Assembly: GCF_058153355.1 (NCBI RefSeq)
Contig: NZ_CM177019.1
Length of the DNA: 64,000 nucleotides
Strand: one strand, 5' to 3'
Below are positions 9,584 through 35,586 of the stretch, in pieces (position 1 is the stretch's first letter; each line of letters begins with the position of its first letter). The position numbers and the translations under genes are program-made. Below the pieces are notes generated by a model. The model was not told the DNA's origin, ran no database searches, and saw only the letters and a program-made list of their open reading frames with translations.

Positions 9584-11566
9584 TTACCATTGATAACTAA
9601 CGAAAATTTTTCCGTTACGACCATCCTGTGGGATGCCTTGCGGCGACCAGTACTCTTTGTCGAAGGCGTTGCCCAATACCAGAGTAGTGGTCATACCTTT
9701 GAGCGCCTGCTGCCCTTGATAACTGACGTAGAAATCATTCACACCATAGCCAGGTTGTTTGCTGTAACTGCTGCTGATATGTGTTGAGCGATCGGCAAAC
9801 GTACCGACCCAACCAACAGAGAAGCCACTGTGAGCGATCGGAATATTCAGGGTGCTGGTAACGGTATCCGGGTTAATACTGGAAATATATTCCCCGGTAT
9901 CGGTGTCTTTGCCGCGGGTACGGTTATAGGCCACATCAAGGCTAAACAGATCAGTGGTATATTTCGTCATCACATCCCAGCCCCAGATTTTGGCGTTCGG
10001 GACGTTATACGACATAGTTGTCGCCGCCGCGAAATCGACAGTCGTGGAGATGTAATCCTTCGCTTTGGTATCAAAGTAGCTGGCTTTAAATTCCAGGGCA
10101 TCATTGGACAACATCAGGTCATCAAAACGCAGCCCAAAACCGTACTCCTGAGTTTCGTTAGTTTCCGGACGTAAGTTCGGGTTTGGCACCCAATAGTTGG
10201 TATAGAAGCGACCAATCGAGAAGTGCTTAGAATCGTTATACATTTCGCCCATCGTCGGGGCGCGGAATGCCTGGGCATATGAGCCAAATAACATCAGCCA
10301 GTTGGTCGGGTTGATAGTCATCCCCGCACGAGATGACCATTTGTCAGCATCAACATCTTTGTAGCCGTCGCTGCTACCGTGATAACTGTCATAGCGGGTT
10401 CCGCCAAGCAGGGTAATCGGCAGATCGCGTAAGGTGATCTCATCCTGTAGCCAGCCAGAGCTAAAATCGATTTTTGCTTGCGGAAAGCCCGTCGTCGCGC
10501 CACCCGGATGTTGTTCCTGACGATAATACTCACCGCCATATGTCAGTAAGTGAGAAGCGAAACTGTCGGCAAATAGAGTGGAACGGTTCTCCAGCCTGGC
10601 TCCTTTTGTTATCTGTTCACGATACTCGCCGGAACTCCCCGTGTTTTGCGCATTAATACGGACTTCCGACCAGTAAATTTTTGCATCTGCATTTAACCAG
10701 TCGTTGCCCTGCGGGGCGAGTTTATAAGAAAGCTGCGCATCGCGTTGAATTGTTGAACGATCAACCATCGGGTTGCTGTTTTCAGAAGCCTCAACGGTCT
10801 GCGGATTTTTTGGTTCACGCGCGTCGTTGTTGTAGTAACGCACTAAACCGCTCAGAGACTGGGCTGAATCAATTTGCCAGGTCCCTTTCGCCAGCATGTT
10901 ATTAATGGACTCGTCATTCGGCGCGGTTTCACCATTGCTCTGGCGTAAATCACCCCGATCGCGACTGGACCAGGCCACAATACCATCCAGATTTTCAGTT
11001 CGCCCAAACGCGCTCGCGCCTAATCCCAGGCTATGGTCCCCCGTGCCACCAGTACCAAAGACACGAAAACCACTACTTTGTCCTTCCTGCAATAAATCTT
11101 TTGCATCGACCGTATCGTAGGAGATCACCCCACCCAGCGCGCCACTGCCATACAGTAATGCTGAAGGTCCGCGAACAATCTCAACACGCTTGATCAGCGC
11201 CGGATCGAGAAAAGTACCATTCAGATGTCCGGTATCCGTTCCCTGGCGAACACCATCGACAAGAACCAGCACGCCGCGATGATCATAGCCACGCATATTT
11301 ACATCCTGACCGTTGGTTCGTCCGGTACCATCAAGAGTAATTCCAGGAACATGACGCAGCAGATCGGTGGCTGAAGTAGCCGTTTGATTTTCAGGAGCGG
11401 AAGTGTCGATGACGCTGACCATCATAGGCGCTTCGAAGGAACTACGGGCATTCCCCGTTGCCGTAACGGTCATGGTTTCAGTAGCAAAAGCAAACGTTGG
11501 CAAGGTGGCAGAAACAGCCAAAGCCAACAAACTCAAACGCAACGAGGTAAATTGCGGACGTGACAT
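9584..11566 (-). CDS. chuA: TonB-dependent outer-membrane haem/haemoglobin receptor ChuA (660 aa)
   Basis: ORF 9584..11566; signal peptide, plug and barrel motifs, C-terminal ...KIFVSYQW; matches ChuA/ShuA. Confidence 0.95.
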   Translation of the reverse strand: MSRPQFTSLRLSLLALAVSATLPTFAFATETMTVTATGNARSSFEAPMMVSVIDTSAPENQTATSATDLLRHVPGITLDGTGRTNGQDVNMRGYDHRGVLVLVDGVRQGTDTGHLNGTFLDPALIKRVEIVRGPSALLYGSGALGGVISYDTVDAKDLLQEGQSSGFRVFGTGGTGDHSLGLGASAFGRTENLDGIVAWSSRDRGDLRQSNGETAPNDESINNMLAKGTWQIDSAQSLSGLVRYYNNDAREPKNPQTVEASENSNPMVDRSTIQRDAQLSYKLAPQGNDWLNADAKIYWSEVRINAQNTGSSGEYREQITKGARLENRSTLFADSFASHLLTYGGEYYRQEQHPGGATTGFPQAKIDFSSGWLQDEITLRDLPITLLGGTRYDSYHGSSDGYKDVDADKWSSRAGMTINPTNWLMLFGSYAQAFRAPTMGEMYNDSKHFSIGRFYTNYWVPNPNLRPETNETQEYGFGLRFDDLMLSNDALEFKASYFDTKAKDYISTTVDFAAATTMSYNVPNAKIWGWDVMTKYTTDLFSLDVAYNRTRGKDTDTGEYISSINPDTVTSTLNIPIAHSGFSVGWVGTFADRSTHISSSYSKQPGYGVNDFYVSYQGQQALKGMTTTLVLGNAFDKEYWSPQGIPQDGRNGKIFVSYQW

Positions 11567-11855
11567 AGCGATTCTCCATGAGGAAAATAAAAAATGCTGG
11601 CTGCCTGGGTTAATACCGGGGTGGCTTGCGAGAAATAAATTTATTTAAAATTCAGAGCGATAATATTCGCCGGGTGAGTTTACAGGCGTTTATATCCCAT
11701 GAAATTGCCTGGTATCTCGGCAAATACGCAAAAGCACGCCCTCTTTGTCAGGCAAAACGATATGCCCCATCAGGAGTGAAGAGCGCTGTGCGTTATCCCT
11801 TGCAAATGCTATGGTTTTGTTATCCATATGGTCGTGTTTTGTTAAGCGCGAACGT

Positions 11856-11874
11856 GATAATGAGAATTATTATC
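11856..11874. promoter_or_regulatory. Fur box upstream of chuA (about 290 bp before the start codon, implying a long leader)
   Basis: gataatgagaattattatc, about 16/19 to the consensus GATAATGATAATCATTATC. Confidence 0.6.
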
Positions 11875-12203
11875 GATCAATTTTTTATGATCAAGCTTTT
11901 TTTAACCGCCATTAACACAATAAACAGGGGGTTATGAAACCTATCCTGCGCCCTGGAAACCACTTTGTTTTTATGGTTATTCCCCCATGACCTCATCACT
12001 AAACTTTGTCGTTAACAGTGATAATTTTCTCTTCTCTTTGCTCTGCAAGCCGCGATATCTCTGGGTTCTCAGCTTTTTCCCGCGCTGAAATTTAGTCGGT
12101 AACAAGAACGTTAGCTGACGAAGCATCTTGATAAAAATCAAAAATAAATACGCTTGTAACGCCTTGCGTATTGAATCGACGGTTGTATTTCATATATAAC
12201 TCA

Positions 12204-12225
12204 AATGATAATCATGATCATTCTC
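12204..12225. promoter_or_regulatory. Fur box overlapping the chuT promoter
   Basis: aatgataatcatgatcattctc, about 25 bp upstream of the chuT ATG at 12249. Confidence 0.65.
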
Positions 12226-12248
12226 AATTTGATAAGAGTTCTCATATT

Positions 12249-13163
12249 ATGCCAAGGATCATCACCAGGCCGTTTCTTTTTTCCCCACTGACGTTATGTA
12301 TTTCAGCCGTGGCCTCTGCCGCGAAGACCGCGGTAAAACGAAAAAAATTGTTTACGGCAGTACTGGCTCTTAGCTGGGCTTTTAGCGTAACGGCTGCCGA
12401 ACGTATCGTGGTCGCAGGAGGATCGCTGACGGAGCTAATCTACGCGATGGGCGCTGGCGAACGCGTGGTTGGTGTCGATGAAACGACATCTTATCCACCA
12501 GAAACCGCCAAACTGCCGCATATTGGCTACTGGAAACAACTCAGCAGCGAAGGCATTTTGTCACTTCGCCCGGATAGCGTAATTACCTGGCAGGATGCCG
12601 GGCCACAAATTGTGCTCGACCAACTACGAGCGCAGAAAGTCAACGTCGTCACCCTGCCGCGTGTGCCTGCCACCCTTGAGCAGATGTACGCCAACATTCG
12701 CCAACTGGCAAAAACGCTACAGGTTCCTGAACAAGGCGAGGCGCTGGTGACACAGATCAACCAACGCCTGGAGCGAGTACAGCAAAACGTGGCGGGCAAA
12801 AAAGCCCCGGTTAAAGCCATGTTTATTCTCTCCGCAGGCGGAAGTGCGCCACAGGTTGCCGGTAAAGGCAGCGTCGCGGACGCCATTCTTTCGCTTGCCG
12901 GAGCAGAAAACGTCGCAACCCACCAGCAGTACAAAAGCTACAGTGCAGAATCACTGATTGCGGCTAATCCAGAAGTGATTGTCGTAACCTCACAAATGGT
13001 CGATGGCGATATTAACCGGCTACGTTCTATTGCCGGAATTACCCACACTGCCGCATGGAAAAACCAGCGCATTATCACCGTTGATCAAAACCTGATTCTG
13101 GGAATGGGTCCGCGTATTGCTGATGTCGTTGAGTCTTTACACCAGCAGCTTTGGCCGCAATAA
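12249..13163 (+). CDS. chuT: Periplasmic haem-binding protein ChuT (ABC transporter substrate-binding protein), 304 aa
   Basis: ORF 12171..13163; the ORF-track start lies upstream of the Fur box/promoter, so the start is placed at the ATG at 12249 (MPRIITRP...). Start is uncertain and could be further downstream. Confidence 0.8.
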   Translation: MPRIITRPFLFSPLTLCISAVASAAKTAVKRKKLFTAVLALSWAFSVTAAERIVVAGGSLTELIYAMGAGERVVGVDETTSYPPETAKLPHIGYWKQLSSEGILSLRPDSVITWQDAGPQIVLDQLRAQKVNVVTLPRVPATLEQMYANIRQLAKTLQVPEQGEALVTQINQRLERVQQNVAGKKAPVKAMFILSAGGSAPQVAGKGSVADAILSLAGAENVATHQQYKSYSAESLIAANPEVIVVTSQMVDGDINRLRSIAGITHTAAWKNQRIITVDQNLILGMGPRIADVVESLHQQLWPQ

Positions 13164-13182
13164 ATGGATTTAAATCAGACGA

Positions 13183-14520
13183 ATGAACACAAATAACCCC
13201 CTGGATCTCACGCCACATTTTGCTTTAGACGGTGATCAGCCATTTAAAGACAGGCGCGCCATGATGCCGTTTCGTGGGGCCATTCCAGTTGCCAAAGAGC
13301 AACTGGCACAGACCTGGCAAGAGATGCTCAATCAAACGGTATCACCACGTAAGCGACTGGTTTATCTACACATTCCTTTTTGTGCAACACACTGCACGTT
13401 TTGTGGTTTTTATCAGAACCGTTTTAATGAAGATGCGTGTGCTCATTATACCGACGCCCTGATTCGTGAAATAGAAATGGAAGCGGACAGCGTATTGCAT
13501 CAGTCTGCCCCCATCCACGCGGTCTATTTCGGTGGCGGCACGCCTTCCGCGCTTTCGGCACACGATTTGGCCAGAATTATCACCACATTACGAGAAAAGC
13601 TGCCACTGGCCCCTGATTGTGAAATCACTATCGAAGGCCGGGTACTGAATTTTGACGCTGAGCGAATCGATGCTTGCCTTGATGCAGGAGCAAACCGCTT
13701 CTCAATTGGTATTCAGTCGTTTAACAGCAAAATCCGTAAGAAAATGGCCCGCACCTCGGATGGCCCAACCGCCATTGCGTTTATGGAAAGCCTGGTCAAA
13801 CGCGACCGTGCTGCGGTGGTCTGTGACCTTCTGTTTGGCCTGCCGGGTCAGGATGCGCAAACCTGGGGAGAAGATCTGACTATTGCCCGCGATATCGGTC
13901 TCGACGGCGTCGATCTCTATGCGCTCAATGTCCTGCCCAATACACCGCTGGGCAAAGCCGTGGAAAATGGGCGTACTACCGTGCCCTCTCCGGCAGAACG
14001 ACGCGATCTTTATCTGCAAGGGTGTGACTTCATGGACGAAGCTGGTTGGCGCTGTATCAGTAACAGCCACTGGGGCCGTACCACACGCGAACGCAATCTC
14101 TATAACCTGCTGATTAAACAAGGTGCCGATTGTCTGGCCTTTGGTTCCGGAGCCGGCGGTTCGATTAATGGTTACTCCTGGATGAACGAACGCAGTCTTC
14201 AGACCTGGCATGAATCCGTCGCGGCAGGCAAAAAACCGCTGATGATGATCATGCGTAACGCCGAACGTAATGCGCAATGGCGTCATACCTTGCAGTCAGG
14301 TGTTGAAACAGCGCGTGTACCGCTGGATGAACTTACGCCACATGCCGAAAAACTCGCGCCGTTACTGGCTCAATGGCACCAAAAAGGCTTAAGCCGCGAT
14401 GCTTCAACTTGCCTGCGGCTGACTAATGAAGGTCGTTTCTGGGCAAGCAATATTTTGCAGTCTCTTAATGAACTAATTCAGGTACTTAATGCGCCAGCGA
14501 TTGTGCGTGAAAAACCATAA
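13183..14520 (+). CDS. chuW: Radical-SAM HemN-like haem-degrading enzyme ChuW (anaerobilin synthase), 445 aa
   Basis: ORF 13183..14520; radical-SAM CxxxCxxC motif (CATHCTFCGF); position in the chuTWXY operon. Confidence 0.9.
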   Translation: MNTNNPLDLTPHFALDGDQPFKDRRAMMPFRGAIPVAKEQLAQTWQEMLNQTVSPRKRLVYLHIPFCATHCTFCGFYQNRFNEDACAHYTDALIREIEMEADSVLHQSAPIHAVYFGGGTPSALSAHDLARIITTLREKLPLAPDCEITIEGRVLNFDAERIDACLDAGANRFSIGIQSFNSKIRKKMARTSDGPTAIAFMESLVKRDRAAVVCDLLFGLPGQDAQTWGEDLTIARDIGLDGVDLYALNVLPNTPLGKAVENGRTTVPSPAERRDLYLQGCDFMDEAGWRCISNSHWGRTTRERNLYNLLIKQGADCLAFGSGAGGSINGYSWMNERSLQTWHESVAAGKKPLMMIMRNAERNAQWRHTLQSGVETARVPLDELTPHAEKLAPLLAQWHQKGLSRDASTCLRLTNEGRFWASNILQSLNELIQVLNAPAIVREKP

Positions 14521-14532
14521 CAGGAGTGATTT

Positions 14533-15027
14533 ATGAGCCATGTCTCGTTACAAGAATTTTTGAAAACGGAGCCGGACGGTACGCTGGAGGTGGTAGCCGA
14601 ACAATACAACACCACACTGCTGGAAGTAGTGAGAAATCTACCCTCCTCTACCGTAGTGTCAGGCGATAAATTCGATACTGTCTGGGATACCGTCTGCGAA
14701 TGGGGCAACGTCACCACGTTAGTACATACTGCCGATGTAATCCTCGAATTTAGCGGCGAACTGCCTTCGGGTTTCCATCGCCACGGCTATTTCAACCTAC
14801 GCGGAAAGCACGGCATGTCCGGGCATATCAAAGCAGAAAACTGCACACATATTGCCTTGATCGAACGTAAATTTATGGGCATGGACACCGCATCCATTCT
14901 CTTTTTCAACAAAGAAGGCAGCTCAATGCTGAAAATCTTCCTCGGCAGGGATGACCATCGTCAGCTCCTGAGCGAACAAGTCAGCGCCTTCCATGCTCTG
15001 GCAGCATCGTTAAAGGAACACGCCTGA
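14533..15027 (+). CDS. chuX: Haem-binding/chaperone protein ChuX (164 aa)
   Basis: ORF 14533..15027; operon position; stop overlaps the chuY start. Confidence 0.85.
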   Translation: MSHVSLQEFLKTEPDGTLEVVAEQYNTTLLEVVRNLPSSTVVSGDKFDTVWDTVCEWGNVTTLVHTADVILEFSGELPSGFHRHGYFNLRGKHGMSGHIKAENCTHIALIERKFMGMDTASILFFNKEGSSMLKIFLGRDDHRQLLSEQVSAFHALAASLKEHA

Positions 15028-15650
15028 TGACGCCGTGGCTACTCTTTGGCGCAGGCGGAAAAGGTGTGGGTGCCAGAACGCTTGAACTGGCGCTGGCGGA
15101 ACAACGTCCGGTCGTTGCTGTCATTCGTCATGCTGATGCTGCCACGAAACTGGCGCAACAAGGCGTACAGGTTTTTACAGGCGACGCCTGTGATGCCAGC
15201 GTAGTCGCGGCTGCTTGCCGCGCAGCTGGCCCGGATGCGCTTATCATCTCAACAATGGGCGGAGCTCAGGATTATCTGGCACACAGAACAGTGATTGATG
15301 AGGCCGAAAAGGCCGGCATCAGTCGCATGATTCTGGTGACCTCTTTGGGATGTGGCGATAGCTGGCCGTTTTTATCGGAGCGGGCAAAGGCTGCGTTTGG
15401 TCAGGCGGTACGGGAAAAAACGCTGGCGGAAAGCTGGTTGCAAACCAGCCAGCTTGATTACGCCATTCTCCGCCCTGGCGGTCTGCTTGATGGTGCGGCA
15501 ACGGGCAAAGCACAACGGATACAAAATCAGGAGTGTCATGGTTTTGTTAACCGTGTCGATGTCGCCGCACATATCCATGAACTGGCAAATGCGCCAGCAC
15601 TTAACCAGCAGGTCTACAGTCTGATTGAACCGGACCTGAAACCGGCGTGA
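15027..15650 (+). CDS. chuY: NAD(P)H-dependent anaerobilin reductase ChuY (207 aa)
   Basis: ORF 15027..15650; N-terminal Rossmann motif (GAGGKGVGAR); start overlaps the chuX stop. Confidence 0.85.
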   Translation: MTPWLLFGAGGKGVGARTLELALAEQRPVVAVIRHADAATKLAQQGVQVFTGDACDASVVAAACRAAGPDALIISTMGGAQDYLAHRTVIDEAEKAGISRMILVTSLGCGDSWPFLSERAKAAFGQAVREKTLAESWLQTSQLDYAILRPGGLLDGAATGKAQRIQNQECHGFVNRVDVAAHIHELANAPALNQQVYSLIEPDLKPA

Positions 15651-15698
15651 TCCCCCGGCGCGGAATCTCCGCGCCGTAATGTCGTAACGGAGTTTTGC

Positions 15699-16691
15699 GT
15701 GCTCAAGGATTCACTCTCTTCCGCCAGGGTCTTTATGGGGCTATCACTATTATTGCTAGCTCTGGTGCTGTTCGGTGCCAGTCAGGGAGCGTTAAAGATC
15801 AGTTTTGATGCCCTTTTTGATGAGGAATACCGCGATATCTGGCTCAATATTCGTCTACCACGGGTTTTGCTGGCGGTGCTGGTAGGTGCAGCGTTGGCAA
15901 CCGCCGGGGTAATTATGCAGGGGCTTTTTCGCAACCCAATGGCTGACCCTGGATTACTCGGCGTCAGTAGCGGTTCTGCATTAATGGTTGGCGTTGCTAT
16001 TGTGCTGCCCTTTTCCTTCCCAGTGGTGCTGGTGCTCTATGAGCAAATGGTGTTTGCCATTGCCGGAAGTTTAGTGGTCTGCACCATCATTTTTCTCATC
16101 ACGCAGCGCCATCGCGATGGAAGCATGATGCAATTATTACTCGCCGGTATCGCCATCAATGCCCTGTGCGGCGCAGCGATCGGCATCCTGAGCTATATCG
16201 GCGATGAGCAGCAGCTACGACAACTCACATTGTGGATGATGGGCAATCTTGGACAGGCGCAATGGCCGACGTTATTGGTTGCCAGTTCATTCATCCTACC
16301 GGCCATTATTGCAACAACTTGTCTCGCCGGAACGCTGAATTTACTGCAGCTCGGTGATGAAGAAGCCCACTACCTCGGCGTGAACGTTAAGCGTAAACGC
16401 CAGCAATTACTGTTAGTGAGCTCACTGCTCGTTGGTGCCGCCGTATCGGTAAGCGGCATTATCGGCTTTATTGGCCTGGTGATCCCGCATCTGATTCGTA
16501 TGACTACCGGGGCAAATCACCGCTGGCTAATCCCTTGCTCCGCCCTCGCCGGAGCCTGTTTATTGCTGATGGCAGACACGCTTGCCCGCACACTGGTACA
16601 GCCAGCAGAAATGCCCGTGGGATTATTAACCAGCCTGCTTGGTGGCCCTTATTTTATGTGGTTGATTCTGCGCAACCGGAGGATCACATGA
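15699..16691 (+). CDS. chuU: Haem ABC transporter permease ChuU (FecCD family), 330 aa
   Basis: ORF 15699..16691; polytopic FecCD-type permease. Confidence 0.9.
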
Positions 16692-17458
16692 TCAGCGCCC
16701 AGAATCTGGTTTATAGCCTTCAGGGGCGGCGTCTGACTGATAATGTCTCGCTGACTTTTCCCGGTGGGGAAATTGTTGCCATTCTCGGCCCTAATGGTGC
16801 GGGAAAATCTACGCTGCTTCGCCAGTTAACCGGCTATCTTCAACCTGATAGCGGCGAATGTCGGTTGTTTAATAAGCCATTAAATGAATGGTCGATTACT
16901 GAACTGGCGAAACACCGGGCCGTGATGCGTCAAAATAGCCACATGGCGTTTCCATTCAGCGTACAAGAAGTTATCCAGATGGGGCGGCATCCGCATCGTA
17001 CTGGTAATCAGGATAATGAAACAGCACAAATAATGGCGTTATGTGACTGTCAGGCGTTAGCAAACCGCGACTATCGGCAATTATCCGGTGGTGAACAACA
17101 GCGCGTGCAATTAGCGCGCCTGCTGGTGCAACTCTGGGAACCAACTCCCTCACCGAAATGGTTATTTCTTGATGAACCAACTTCGGCGCTGGATATTCAC
17201 CATCAGCAGCACTTGTTTCGTTTATTACGCCAGCTAGTTCACGAACGGCAGTTCAATGTTTGCTGCGTATTGCACGATCTAAATCTTGCCGCGCGTTATG
17301 CAGACCGTGTTGTATTAATGCAAAAAGGAAAGGTTATCGCAAATGGTAAACCGCAGGACGTATTGACACAGCAGGCGCTGACAATGCTCTACGGCGCGGA
17401 TATTACCGTACTTAAAGATCCTGCCAACCATTCACCACTGATCGTCCTCGATCATTAA
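16688..17458 (+). CDS. chuV: Haem ABC transporter ATP-binding protein ChuV (HmuV), 256 aa
   Basis: ORF 16535..17458 trimmed to the ATG at 16688 (ATGA overlap with chuU stop); Walker [10 protein letters not shown], signature LSGGEQQR, Walker [12 protein letters not shown]. Confidence 0.9.
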
Positions 17459-17464
17459 AACCAA

Positions 17465-21148: not shown

Positions 21149-21486
21149 TCAGGACATAATTAACTGAAAATGATGGCAGGCATGAAGAGGGATGCAGATG
21201 CTGATTTCATTATCCCCGGTGATGACTAAAGGAGAGGCGAAAACGACTTTATTCCCCTGGTATGTGTATCCACCAGTAGAACCCTTCGTTGCCCGAATGC
21301 TGGCAGGAACTGTTGGCAGAACGGCAACATTTTTTTTGTCGTTGACCTCACCATGTCGATCACTGTGCTTGCATCCCATCTTACTGGCTGACAACCCCAC
21401 TATGCCGCTGGTCTGTAAATCCCTCATACCTCTCCTCGCGCGCAATTTAAAGAACCGTTATATCTCAAGAATTTTCAGGGACTAAA

Positions 21487-26144: not shown

Positions 26145-26873
26145 TCAGGAAAAGGTACCTGGCGAATGTTGCGCAAACTGATGTGGCGTTACACCATAAT
26201 ATTGTCGAAATGTGTTTATAAAGTACGACGTACTGCTATACCCACATTTTTCCGCAATAGTATGTAGAGGAATTTGACGTAACTCGAGTAATCGTCTGGC
26301 CATCGACATCCTGGAAGCGAGTAATATTTTACTGAAACAGGTATTTTCGTCCTGCAACTTTTTTTTGATTAGACTCTCGCTGGTATACATTCTTTCCGCG
26401 ATATCGCGTAGATACCAACGTTTAGCGATATCAAAGCTAATAAGGCGTTCAACTTTTCCTGAAACAGTGCTGATACTATTGAAAAGTAAGGGGATTAGTT
26501 CTTTCTTATGAGAAAACATAGATAAACAGGAAAGGTAGAGCATATTGCTCAGTATCGGCGAATTTACTCCGGATTCATTGAAACTATCAAAAATCGCCGT
26601 CACCAGAGGCATGGGCGGGGACTGGTTAATTAACAAACGGTCTTTGCTATGTAACCCTAAATTGCGCGGTAACTGACGAATATTTTGTAAGTAATGGCAA
26701 ACTGTCAGCTCATCGATATCCAGTCGTCGTGTATCCGGTGAACAAAACGCAAAATCGTCTGCCAAATTTTTATCCAGCAGTAGAATACTTTCGTTGTGCA
26801 ACGATATTTTTTGCTGTTCATGATGAATATCCAATGAACGACGAACGAGGATCACCGAGCAGACATGAGTCAT
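26145..26873 (-). CDS. gadW: AraC-family regulator GadW (242 aa)
   Basis: ORF 26145..26873; AraC HTH C-terminus; matches GadW. Confidence 0.9.
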   Translation of the reverse strand: MTHVCSVILVRRSLDIHHEQQKISLHNESILLLDKNLADDFAFCSPDTRRLDIDELTVCHYLQNIRQLPRNLGLHSKDRLLINQSPPMPLVTAIFDSFNESGVNSPILSNMLYLSCLSMFSHKKELIPLLFNSISTVSGKVERLISFDIAKRWYLRDIAERMYTSESLIKKKLQDENTCFSKILLASRMSMARRLLELRQIPLHTIAEKCGYSSTSYFINTFRQYYGVTPHQFAQHSPGTFS

Positions 26874-27119
26874 GACTATCCCTTATATTTCATTACTGCG
26901 ATTATTTCAATTTCAGTATACTAATGAAATGATGCCAGACCGCTTCTTCGTGCATAAACTGCCATATTTGGTAGGACCAAAAGTTATCCAAAAAGTAGTT
27001 TGACATAACAGTTAATTGATAATAAGAAAATGCAAGAAGAATATATTTTCACACAGCGCATAGCTTATGTTTATAAAAAAATGGCTGATCTTATCTCCAG
27101 TAAAAGTTATATTTAACTT

Positions 27120-27225
27120 ACTGAGAGCACAAAGTTTCCCGTGCCAACAGGGAGTGTTATAACGGTTTATTAGTCTGGAGACGGCAGACTATCCTCTTCC
27201 CGGTCCCCTATGCCGGGTTTTTTTT
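27120..27225 (+). ncRNA. gadY: GadY small RNA, antisense to the gadX 3-prime end
   Basis: actgagagcacaaagtttcccgtgccaacagggag...cccggtcccctatgccggg followed by eight T; intrinsic terminator on the + strand ending 16 bp before the gadX stop; matches GadY as I recall it. Confidence 0.65.
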
Positions 27226-27240
27226 ATGTCTGGGTAAAAA

Positions 27241-28065
27241 CTATAATCTTATTTCTTCCGCAGAACGGTCAGTGCCGTAAAAATTCCCTTGTGCAACAAT
27301 ACTTGCCACCGAGTCACGGTTCGGCAATTCTTGTGCCGATCGCTCCTGATACTCTGTGGGCGTCATCCCATAATAATTTCGAAAAACGTAAATGAAATAC
27401 GACACGCTGTGATAACCACAGGACACTGCGACTCTTTTAATTGAAAACCCATGTATAACAATAAGTTGTAAAGCACGTTGCATTCTACACTCAGTAAGCA
27501 ACTGTGAATATGACGTACCTTCTTCGCGCAATTTTTTCTTTAACAGGCTTGAACTCATCAACAGCTCGCTGGCGATTTGGGCTAATGTCCACTCATGGGC
27601 GATATTATTATTGATGACCGTACAAACTCGTGTTCGCATGTTCGGTTGCAAAACGTTCAGAAGCAGCGGTATAAACTGCTCGTCCTCCAGGAAAACAGAT
27701 AACAACGCAAAGATTAATGCTCTTTTACGGAGCATTTCTGCATAGCGCAGATTCTTATTCTGCGATAGTTGCGCAACCTCCTGAAAAACAGGAATATCTC
27801 TGGTACAGTGATGAACGAGTAACGAAGGAACTTTTTTATGTGCATGAAGATTTAATGCCTCCTCCTTGAGCATCGGGAGAAATAATGAAAGCGTGTCCCT
27901 TGAAACTAATACAAAATTCTCGACACACTTATCCACTTGAATTTGACTTGCATCCGCAAAAACCAGTTCACCGCCATTAAAATAGCGATATTCACCATTA
28001 ACCATGGTGAGAATATATTTATGTCTTGCGTACGCAATTAGACAATTACCATGTAGTGATTGCAT
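27241..28065 (-). CDS. gadX: AraC-family regulator GadX (274 aa)
   Basis: ORF 27241..28065; matches GadX. Confidence 0.9.
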   Translation of the reverse strand: MQSLHGNCLIAYARHKYILTMVNGEYRYFNGGELVFADASQIQVDKCVENFVLVSRDTLSLFLPMLKEEALNLHAHKKVPSLLVHHCTRDIPVFQEVAQLSQNKNLRYAEMLRKRALIFALLSVFLEDEQFIPLLLNVLQPNMRTRVCTVINNNIAHEWTLAQIASELLMSSSLLKKKLREEGTSYSQLLTECRMQRALQLIVIHGFSIKRVAVSCGYHSVSYFIYVFRNYYGMTPTEYQERSAQELPNRDSVASIVAQGNFYGTDRSAEEIRL

Positions 28066-33532: not shown

Positions 33533-33555
33533 AAAATTATCCTCTTCAGGAGGAG

Positions 33556-34981
33556 TAATGCCGATCAGTTAAGGATCAGTTGACCGATCCAGTGGCTGTG
33601 TAAGAATCCGGAAACGCTCACTTGTTTCCGGATTTTTTTATGCACATTGGACAGGCTCTTGATCTGGTATCCCGTTACGATTCTCTGCGTAACCCACTGA
33701 CTTCTCTGGGGGATTACCTCGACCCCGAACTCATCTCTCGTTGCCTTGCCGAATCAGGTACTGTAACGCTACGCAAGCGCCGTCTTCCCCTCGAAATGAT
33801 GGTCTGGTGTATTGTTGGCATGGCGCTTGAGCGTAAAGAACCTCTTCACCAGATTGTGAATCGCCTGGACATCATGCTGCCGGGCAATCGCCCCTTCGTT
33901 GCCCCCAGTGCCGTTATTCAGGCCCGCCAGCGCCTGGGAAGTGAGGCTGTCCGCCGCGTGTTCACGAAAACAGCGCAGCTCTGGCATAACGCCACGCCGC
34001 ATCCGCACTGGTGCGGCCTGACCCTGCTGGCCATCGATGGTGTGTTCTGGCGCACACCGGATACACCAGAGAACGATGCAGCCTTCCCCCGCCAGACACA
34101 TGCCGGGAACCCGGCGCTCTACCCGCAGGTCAAAATGGTCTGCCAGATGGAACTGACCAGCCATCTGCTGACGGCTGCAGCCTTCGGCACGATGAAGAAC
34201 AGCGAAAATGAGCTTGCTGAGCAACTTATAGAACAAACCGGCGATAACACTCTGACGTTAATGGATAAAGGTTATTACTCACTGGGACTGTTAAATGCCT
34301 GGAGCCTGGCGGGAGAACACCGCCACTGGATGATACCTCTCAGAAAGGGAGCGCAATATGAAGAGATCAGAAAACTGGGTAAAGGCGATCATCTGGTGAA
34401 GCTGAAAACCAGCCCGCAGGCACGAAAAAAGTGGCCGGGACTGGGAAATGAAGTGACAGCCCGCCTGCTGACCGTGACGCGCAAAGGAAAAGTCTGCCAT
34501 CTGCTGACGTCGATGACGGACGCCATGCGCTTCCCCGGAGGAGAAATGGCGGATCTGTACAGTCATCGCTGGGAAATCGAACTGGGATACAGGGAGATAA
34601 AACAGACGATGCAACTGAGCAGGCTGACGCTGAGAAGTAAAAAGCCGGAGCTTGTGGAGCAAGAGCTGTGGGGTGTCTTACTGGCTTATAATCTGGTGAG
34701 ATATCAGATGATTAAAATGGCGGAACATCTGAAAGGTTACTGGCCGAATCAACTGAGTTTCTCAGAATCATGCGGAATGGTGATGAGAATGCTGATGACA
34801 TTGCAGGGCGCTTCACCGGGACGTATACCGGAGCTGATGCGCGATCTTGCAAGTATGGGACAACTTGTGAAATTACCGACAAGAAGGGAAAGGGCCTTCC
34901 CGAGAGTGGTAAAGGAGAGGCCCTGGAAATACCCCACAGCCCCGAAAAAGAGCCAGTCAGTTGCTTAACTGACTGGCATTA
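33556..34981 (+). mobile_element. IS4 copy 2 (1426 bp), same orientation as copy 1
   Basis: Same termini as copy 1; its own 12-bp target duplication cttcaggaggag at 33544..33555 and 34982..34993; the transposase ORF is identical at the protein level to copy 1. Confidence 0.9.
33640..34968 (+). CDS. insG: IS4 transposase InsG (442 aa)
   Basis: ORF 33622..34968; identical translation to the ORF at 1441..2787. Confidence 0.9.
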
Positions 34982-34983
34982 CT

Positions 34984-35586
34984 TCAGGAGGAGATATTTA
35001 ACATCATTGCCGCCTGGGTGCGATTTTTGACTTCCAGACGGCGATACAGTGATTCCAGATGCGCTTTCACCGTTCCGGTACTGATATTCAGCGCCCTGCC
35101 GATCTCTTTATTTGATTCGCCCGCCGCTAACATGGTTAAAATCTCCCGCTGGCGGGCGCTTAACGATTTGAGATCTTTAATGTCCTTTTCCGGCGTCGTT
35201 CGCCAGTCTCCAGGCAGAAACATCATCCCCATCGCCGCACTATTGACCGCCAACGCAAATGTCTCGACGGTTGAATCACGAGGCACAATGGCCAGCACAT
35301 TAAAATGAATAACTTCCTGTAACCACCGTTTGTTGCAATCCGTCGCCGTAATTAACACCTTAACCTCAGGAAATTGCACCACGGTTTTTTGCAGCAACCA
35401 GTAGCAAAACTCACCATCCTGATCGCCATCGAGCATCACTAAGGCTTCAGGGTAACTTTCCAGCTTTTGCCATAACTCGTCTGCCTGACTGGCCCCCTGA
35501 ATACTCACTCCTGGAATACGATGCTGTAAACTGATTTTCATTCCATGAATAAATATTGACTGCCTGTCAAACATGACTATTTGCAT
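34984..35586 (-). CDS. yhjB: LuxR/FixJ-family response-regulator-like protein YhjB (200 aa)
   Basis: ORF 34984..35586; C-terminal LuxR HTH; the stop codon lies inside the right IS4 target repeat. Confidence 0.85.
   Translation of the reverse strand: MQIVMFDRQSIFIHGMKISLQHRIPGVSIQGASQADELWQKLESYPEALVMLDGDQDGEFCYWLLQKTVVQFPEVKVLITATDCNKRWLQEVIHFNVLAIVPRDSTVETFALAVNSAAMGMMFLPGDWRTTPEKDIKDLKSLSARQREILTMLAAGESNKEIGRALNISTGTVKAHLESLYRRLEVKNRTQAAMMLNISS

Follow-up and report, generated by a model that had tools for sequence, protein, structure and literature searches.

The gadY antisense small RNA gene between gadW and gadX in an Escherichia acid fitness island, identical in sequence to that of E. 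coli K-12

The AraC-family regulator genes gadW and gadX are encoded on the same strand of the 64,000-nucleotide stretch of DNA analyzed here (contig NZ_CM177019.1 of assembly GCF_058153355.1; the whole stretch is referred to below as the window), and the question raised by this locus is whether the DNA between them also encodes the small RNA GadY on the opposite strand and, if it does, how far the regulation described for GadY in K-12 can be carried over to this strain. An earlier note, made from the sequence alone, had proposed a + strand RNA of roughly 106 nt which is missing from the list of open reading frames, ends in a hairpin followed by eight T, and pairs with the gadX 3' UTR, thereby stabilizing the gadXW mRNA. 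The coordinates of the features discussed below are collected in Table 1.

Table 1. Features of the gadW-gadX region of the window, with the evidence for each.
Feature	Coordinates	Strand	Evidence or remark
gadW, AraC-family regulator, 242 aa	26145-26873	-	98% identical to K-12 GadW; same-coordinate gadW annotation in near-identical strain Z0117EC0005
gadX-gadW intercistronic region of the gadXW transcript, 367 bp	26874-27240	-	27120-27225 perfectly complementary to GadY by construction
gadY core promoter	27085-27119	+	Read by eye: -35, -10, TAA
gadY sRNA gene, non-coding, 106 nt	27120-27225	+	Rfam RF00122 match and identity to K-12 b4452
GadY stem-loop 1 (RNA 1-47)	27120-27166	+	Minimum-free-energy fold and Rfam consensus
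UUAU linker between stem-loops 1 and 2	27167-27170	+	Unpaired in the fold; candidate Hfq contact
GadY stem-loop 2 (RNA 52-72)	27171-27191	+	Minimum-free-energy fold and Rfam consensus
gadY intrinsic terminator	hairpin CCCGGTCCCCTATGCCGGG 27199-27217 and T8 27218-27225	+	Terminator scan
Spacer from T-run to gadX stop codon, 15 bp, ATGTCTGGGTAAAAA	27226-27240	.	Sequence and K-12 alignment
gadX, AraC-family acid-resistance activator, 274 aa	27241-28065	-	NCBIfam GadX equivalog NF007432; 95% identical to K-12 GadX

An Rfam scan of the whole window placed GadY (RF00122) at 27117-27230 on the + strand with 150 bits (E = 8.3e-32), compared to a gathering score of 45 bits for this family. The match covers model positions 1-114 of 114, every base equals the consensus, and it is far beyond chance. 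Alignment to gadY of K-12 MG1655 (b4452), as the earlier note had suggested, and a direct string comparison both showed 106/106 nucleotides to be identical. In the K-12 record (NC_000913.3) this ncRNA lies at 3664864-3664969 between gadW (b3515) and gadX (b3516), both of which are on the opposite strand, and the layout in the window is the same. The identity of gadX itself is supported by a score of 593.5 bits against NF007432 (cut-off 500), with its TAG stop codon read as CTA at 27241-27243 on the + strand; the glutamate decarboxylase gene gadA is the next gene after gadX, and the order mdtE, mdtF, gadW, gadY, gadX, gadA is that of K-12 and of the acid fitness island. Taken together, the Rfam match, the complete identity to an annotated K-12 gene, and a location and orientation with respect to gadW, gadX, and gadA that match those in K-12 establish the RNA proposed in the earlier note as gadY, and we hold it as nearly certain that this is the cis-encoded antisense sRNA of the E. 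coli acid fitness island, with the full published circuit included. At the gene level, the GadX-GadY-GadW acid-resistance circuit is thus intact in this strain.

GadY has been characterized since 2004, and the gene is already known in its reference context. It is indeed missing from the list of open reading frames, as had been pointed out, since it is non-coding. Two open reading frames on the + strand that overlap it were rejected as coding: neither has an NCBIfam family match, the first (27067-27162) has its start codon ahead of the RNA 5' end, and the start of the second (27210-27395) falls within the terminator hairpin. The RefSeq feature tables of the non-K-12 E. coli records that we examined hold no annotation under gadY, which is listed only in the curated K-12 MG1655 record, suggesting that routine annotation systematically overlooks the gene.

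The minimum-free-energy fold of the 106-nt RNA comprises three hairpins, in agreement with the Rfam consensus structure. A UCCUCUU linker separates stem-loop 2 from the third hairpin, which is that of the terminator, and a U8 tail forms the 3' end. The stability of this fold does not exceed that of shuffled sequences (z = -0.73), such that the identification of gadY is carried by homology and not by thermodynamics; the complementary minus-strand RNA is likewise not more stable than its shuffles (z = -1.16). Among the gathered sequences the paired positions do not vary at all, and covariation is therefore absent. Published work names the full-length form GadY 105 and describes forms of 105, 90, and 59 nt (PMC4574537). 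Judging from these lengths and assuming a common 3' end, the 90-nt form would start within the internal loop of stem-loop 1, and the 59-nt form directly 3' of that stem-loop.

The sequence comparisons show the identity to K-12, the match to the structure model, the intrinsic terminator, the setting among the gad genes, and the marked conservation described below, and it is by virtue of the identity to K-12 that the mechanism worked out there is applied to this strain. In published studies, GadY expression requires RpoS (PMC4152358), and GadY overlaps the gadX 3' UTR and base-pairs with the dicistronic mRNA of gadX and gadW, which is then cleaved by RNase III between the two coding regions; the two monocistronic mRNAs that result are stabilized, expression of GadX and GadW increases, and the glutamate-dependent acid-resistance genes are raised (PMC4152358; PMC3937726). 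GadY also binds Hfq (PMC11300174; PMC10783499). For this strain we infer expression, RpoS dependence, Hfq binding, and cleavage from this literature, and the sequence of events would be as follows. Transcription would start at about 27120, downstream of the -10 element at 27108-27113, and would stop at the gene's own terminator (27199-27225); the RNA would be made in stationary phase in an RpoS-dependent manner and would bind Hfq, as in K-12; it would pair with the gadXW mRNA at the gadX 3' UTR and gadX-gadW intercistronic RNA; and the duplex would be cut by RNase III, such that monocistronic gadX and gadW mRNAs accumulate, GadX increases, and with it gadA/gadBC expression and acid resistance. 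The pairing with the gadX 3' UTR put forward in the earlier note is in keeping with the antisense arrangement, whereas its account of simple stabilization of the gadXW mRNA is less specific than the published mechanism, in which RNase III cleaves the transcript and the monocistronic products accumulate.

Other cis-encoded antisense RNAs lie within an operon, between its genes or inside them, and form duplexes that RNase III cuts; examples are SraG, which is encoded between rpsO and pnp, and AsflhD. These likewise lie opposite their flanking genes and are complementary to a segment of mRNA, and their effect depends on double-strand-specific cleavage (PMC5029454; PMC9600491). Their sequences are unrelated to that of GadY, their targets are different, and the net effect of GadY on its target is reported to be positive.

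The conservation of the locus was evaluated at two scales. Among 5426 complete E. coli genomes, 5412 carry the 106 nt of gadY at an identity of at least 99%, in every case on the chromosome and mostly as a single copy, whereas the 367-bp intergenic region reaches at least 99% identity in only 14 of the same genomes, with 860 at 95-99% and 4539 at 90-95%. At finer resolution, we aligned 11 Escherichia sequences. Eight of these were the window, K-12, BL21, an O145:H28 strain, and four additional E. coli; the other three were divergent Escherichia records recovered when one genome per species was scanned for an exact 20-mer. Within gadY, only 2 of 107 columns are variable, compared to 10 of 40 in the promoter (-40 to -1), 69 of 206 in the remaining intergenic region toward gadW, and 9 of 16 in the spacer to the gadX stop; the difference between gadY and the rest of the intergenic region (2/107 vs. 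88/262) is highly significant (Fisher p = 3.6e-13). The two variable gadY columns, one an additional A in a run of A and the other a G-to-A substitution at 27134, are both unpaired and both located in stem-loop 1. The invariant block extends from the -10 element (from 27106) to four bases past the T-run (through 27229), which corresponds to the + strand transcription unit. An invariant gadY block between flanks in which 25-56% of columns vary is a tidy illustration of selection on an sRNA gene.

In the 20-mer scan, GadY was found in the three Escherichia records only (two labeled E. coli and one Escherichia sp.; 143-150 bits), with the understanding that an exact-match scan would miss diverged gadY copies. 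One 20-mer match in a contig of a Bacteroidales metagenome-assembled genome was treated as chance, as Rfam finds no GadY there.

This degree of invariance bears on what the RNA is selected for. A cis-antisense RNA keeps perfect complementarity to its target under any mutation, and yet 105 of the 107 columns do not vary, which argues for an additional constraint. We regard it as a tenable, though tentative, proposal that the 106-nt block is under constraints beyond the pairing with gadXW, either through trans targets reached via Hfq or through a sequence-specific processing signal on either strand, and the invariance also argues for structure and Hfq contacts as further candidate constraints. 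Such reasoning from invariance to functions beyond pairing is a known theme and not a new finding.

One extension of this argument is that the main selected role of GadY is that of a trans-acting, Hfq-dependent sRNA directed at unlinked mRNAs such as sdiA, with gadXW regulation as one function among several. A 2024 study reported sdiA mRNA as a trans target of GadY, with pairing to the sdiA coding region (PMC11300174); together with the reported Hfq binding, and with a near-invariance that needs a constraint beyond complementarity, this gives the idea some footing. The evidence for trans targets comes from that single study, however, whereas GadY is linked to gadXW by its location within the gad regulon and by the acid-resistance phenotypes that have been published (PMC4152358; PMC10783499). 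We therefore consider a mainly trans-acting role unlikely, and it could in any case be compatible with the role in gadXW regulation.

Alternatively, the block could be conserved mainly as a minus-strand cis element of the gadXW mRNA (the gadX 3' UTR, a processing site, or the gadW leader), with the + strand RNA being secondary. The invariant block does lie entirely within the gadX-gadW intercistronic region, and pairing alone leaves its 105 invariant columns unexplained. Nevertheless, the edges of the conserved block coincide with the -10 element and the T-run of the + strand, a + strand promoter and a strand-specific terminator are both preserved, and GadY itself is expressed and active in published work (PMC4152358; PMC4574537), all of which makes this explanation rather improbable. 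Since both strands are the same DNA, conservation of GadY and conservation of the minus-strand mRNA are not fully separable.

The promoter of gadY has a -10 element, TATATT, at 27108-27113 (-12 to -7), which is followed by TAA at 27114-27116 (-6 to -4) and preceded by a G at -14. The best -35 element, CTGATC at 27085-27090, matches the consensus at 3 of 6 positions with a spacer of 17 bp and is weak, which is why a generic sigma-70 scan left the promoter uncalled. A good -10 element with a downstream TAA, a G at -14, and a poor -35 are compatible with sigma-S-dependent promoters; a C at -13 is typical of sigma-S-selective promoters, and here that base is T (27107). Taken alone, these features are compatible with, but only weakly indicative of, a sigma-S-type promoter, and the strongest argument for such a promoter would be the identity with K-12 from -24 (27096) to +113, the nearest difference being a single C/T at 27095 (-25). 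The A at 27120 would be the transcription start, as we infer from the K-12 annotation, and the transcript would begin ACTGAGAGCA. Across the 11 aligned Escherichia sequences, GTTATATTT at 27106-27114 does not vary, and the variants nearby are a T for A at 27115 in one sequence and a G for T at 27118 in another.

The part of the intergenic region closer to gadW (26874-27095) differs from K-12 at about 20 positions and by a 1-bp indel. As described in PMC7286202, which cites Tramonti 2008, this intergenic stretch contains the control region from which gadW and gadY are divergently transcribed; GadX/GadW control both promoters, and SdiA has an influence on both. Because the literature places the gadW promoters and GadX/GadW sites in 26874-27095, regulatory differences from K-12 are possible there. 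One might accordingly suppose that this strain carries gadY without expressing it, for example through these upstream differences, which fall in the divergent control region upstream of -25; given that the sequence from -24 to +113 is unchanged relative to K-12, and that gadX, gadW, and gadA are intact, we consider a silent copy very improbable.

The hairpin and the eight T lie where the earlier note had placed them, and the terminator is the same as in K-12. The terminator scan gave 6 stem pairs, 5 of them G-C, with a 7-nt loop and the tail TTTTTTTTAT, and called the site on the + strand only. On the minus strand, A8 precedes the hairpin and AAGAGGAT comes after it, leaving no U-tract, and a scan of this strand over 26600-27600 returned no terminator-like site. 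Without a minus-strand terminator between the two genes, read-through from gadX into gadW is plausible, and the gadX 3' UTR would then carry the full complement of GadY. That the hairpin and T-run are simply a bidirectional gadX terminator with no separate RNA gene, as their position 15 bp past the gadX stop codon might suggest, is scarcely credible and was rejected, given the missing minus-strand U-tract and the match to the full 114-position GadY model as opposed to the hairpin alone.

The distance from the terminator to gadX differs from that in K-12. The 16 bp given in the earlier note holds if positions are counted from 27225 to 27241; the intervening bases number 15. In K-12 there are 16 intervening bases, and the spacer in the window shows a 1-bp deletion and 2 substitutions relative to it. 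Beyond the spacer, the 3' end of gadX (its last ~100 bp, 27241-27340) is highly variable among Escherichia lineages, with one record (E69) showing a 10-bp gap and many substitutions, although the figure of 57% variable columns obtained for this segment in the 11-sequence alignment is inflated by end gaps. The differences between GadX of this strain and that of K-12 are found mostly in the C-terminal 35 residues, in addition to scattered sites.

Elsewhere in the acid fitness island, the strain differs from K-12 by an inserted chu/shu heme-uptake locus (chuS, chuA, shuT, hutW, hutX, chuY, shuU, and an ATPase gene) at ~8500-17460, between dctR and yhiD, which indicates that the strain is not K-12-like. 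Within this locus, Rfam detected the shuA/chuA 5' UTR thermoregulator (RF02597) at 11564-11595 on the minus strand with 60.1 bits (gathering score 58). Another Rfam match (105 bits, with a gathering score of 86) is to the ES205 sRNA, at 21266-21337 on the + strand; it is located some 120 bp downstream from the stop codon of gadE, and its 3' end is a hairpin followed by a U-run. This match is probably a gadE 3'-UTR-derived sRNA; on the opposite strand, at the equivalent of 21149-21427 (-), RefSeq annotates a "hypothetical protein" CDS in a related strain, which may be spurious.

The window also contains several mobile elements. Two IS4-type insertion sequences were identified at 33556-34981 and ~1375-2800, whose transposase open reading frames (33622-34968 and 1441-2787, both on the + strand) encode 100% identical proteins with the Pfam domains Nterm_IS4 and DDE_Tnp_1. 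Of these, the 1426-bp copy located between treF and yhjB has inverted ends of ~20 bp and is bordered on both sides by the 12-bp direct repeat CTTCAGGAGGAG (33544-33555 and 34982-34993); strain Z0117EC0005, which is otherwise very similar, lacks this copy. The first IS4 copy is immediately followed by an IS66-family element (2589-5132) with three open reading frames, whose Pfam domains are, in order, HTH_Tnp_1, TnpB_IS66, and DDE_Tnp_IS66. When the window is compared with the corresponding stretch of Z0117EC0005, positions 1256-5162 lack a collinear counterpart, and positions 1-1255 match the ArsP-type permease region of that strain and not the gorA end of the stretch. At the other end of the window, an ldr/rdl type I toxin-antitoxin repeat is indicated by an Rfam match to the rdlD antitoxin RNA (63759-63824, + strand, 90.4 bits); this array is cut by the window edge, and 63519-63920 matches up to four places in a related strain, where the ldr array has four tandem copies.
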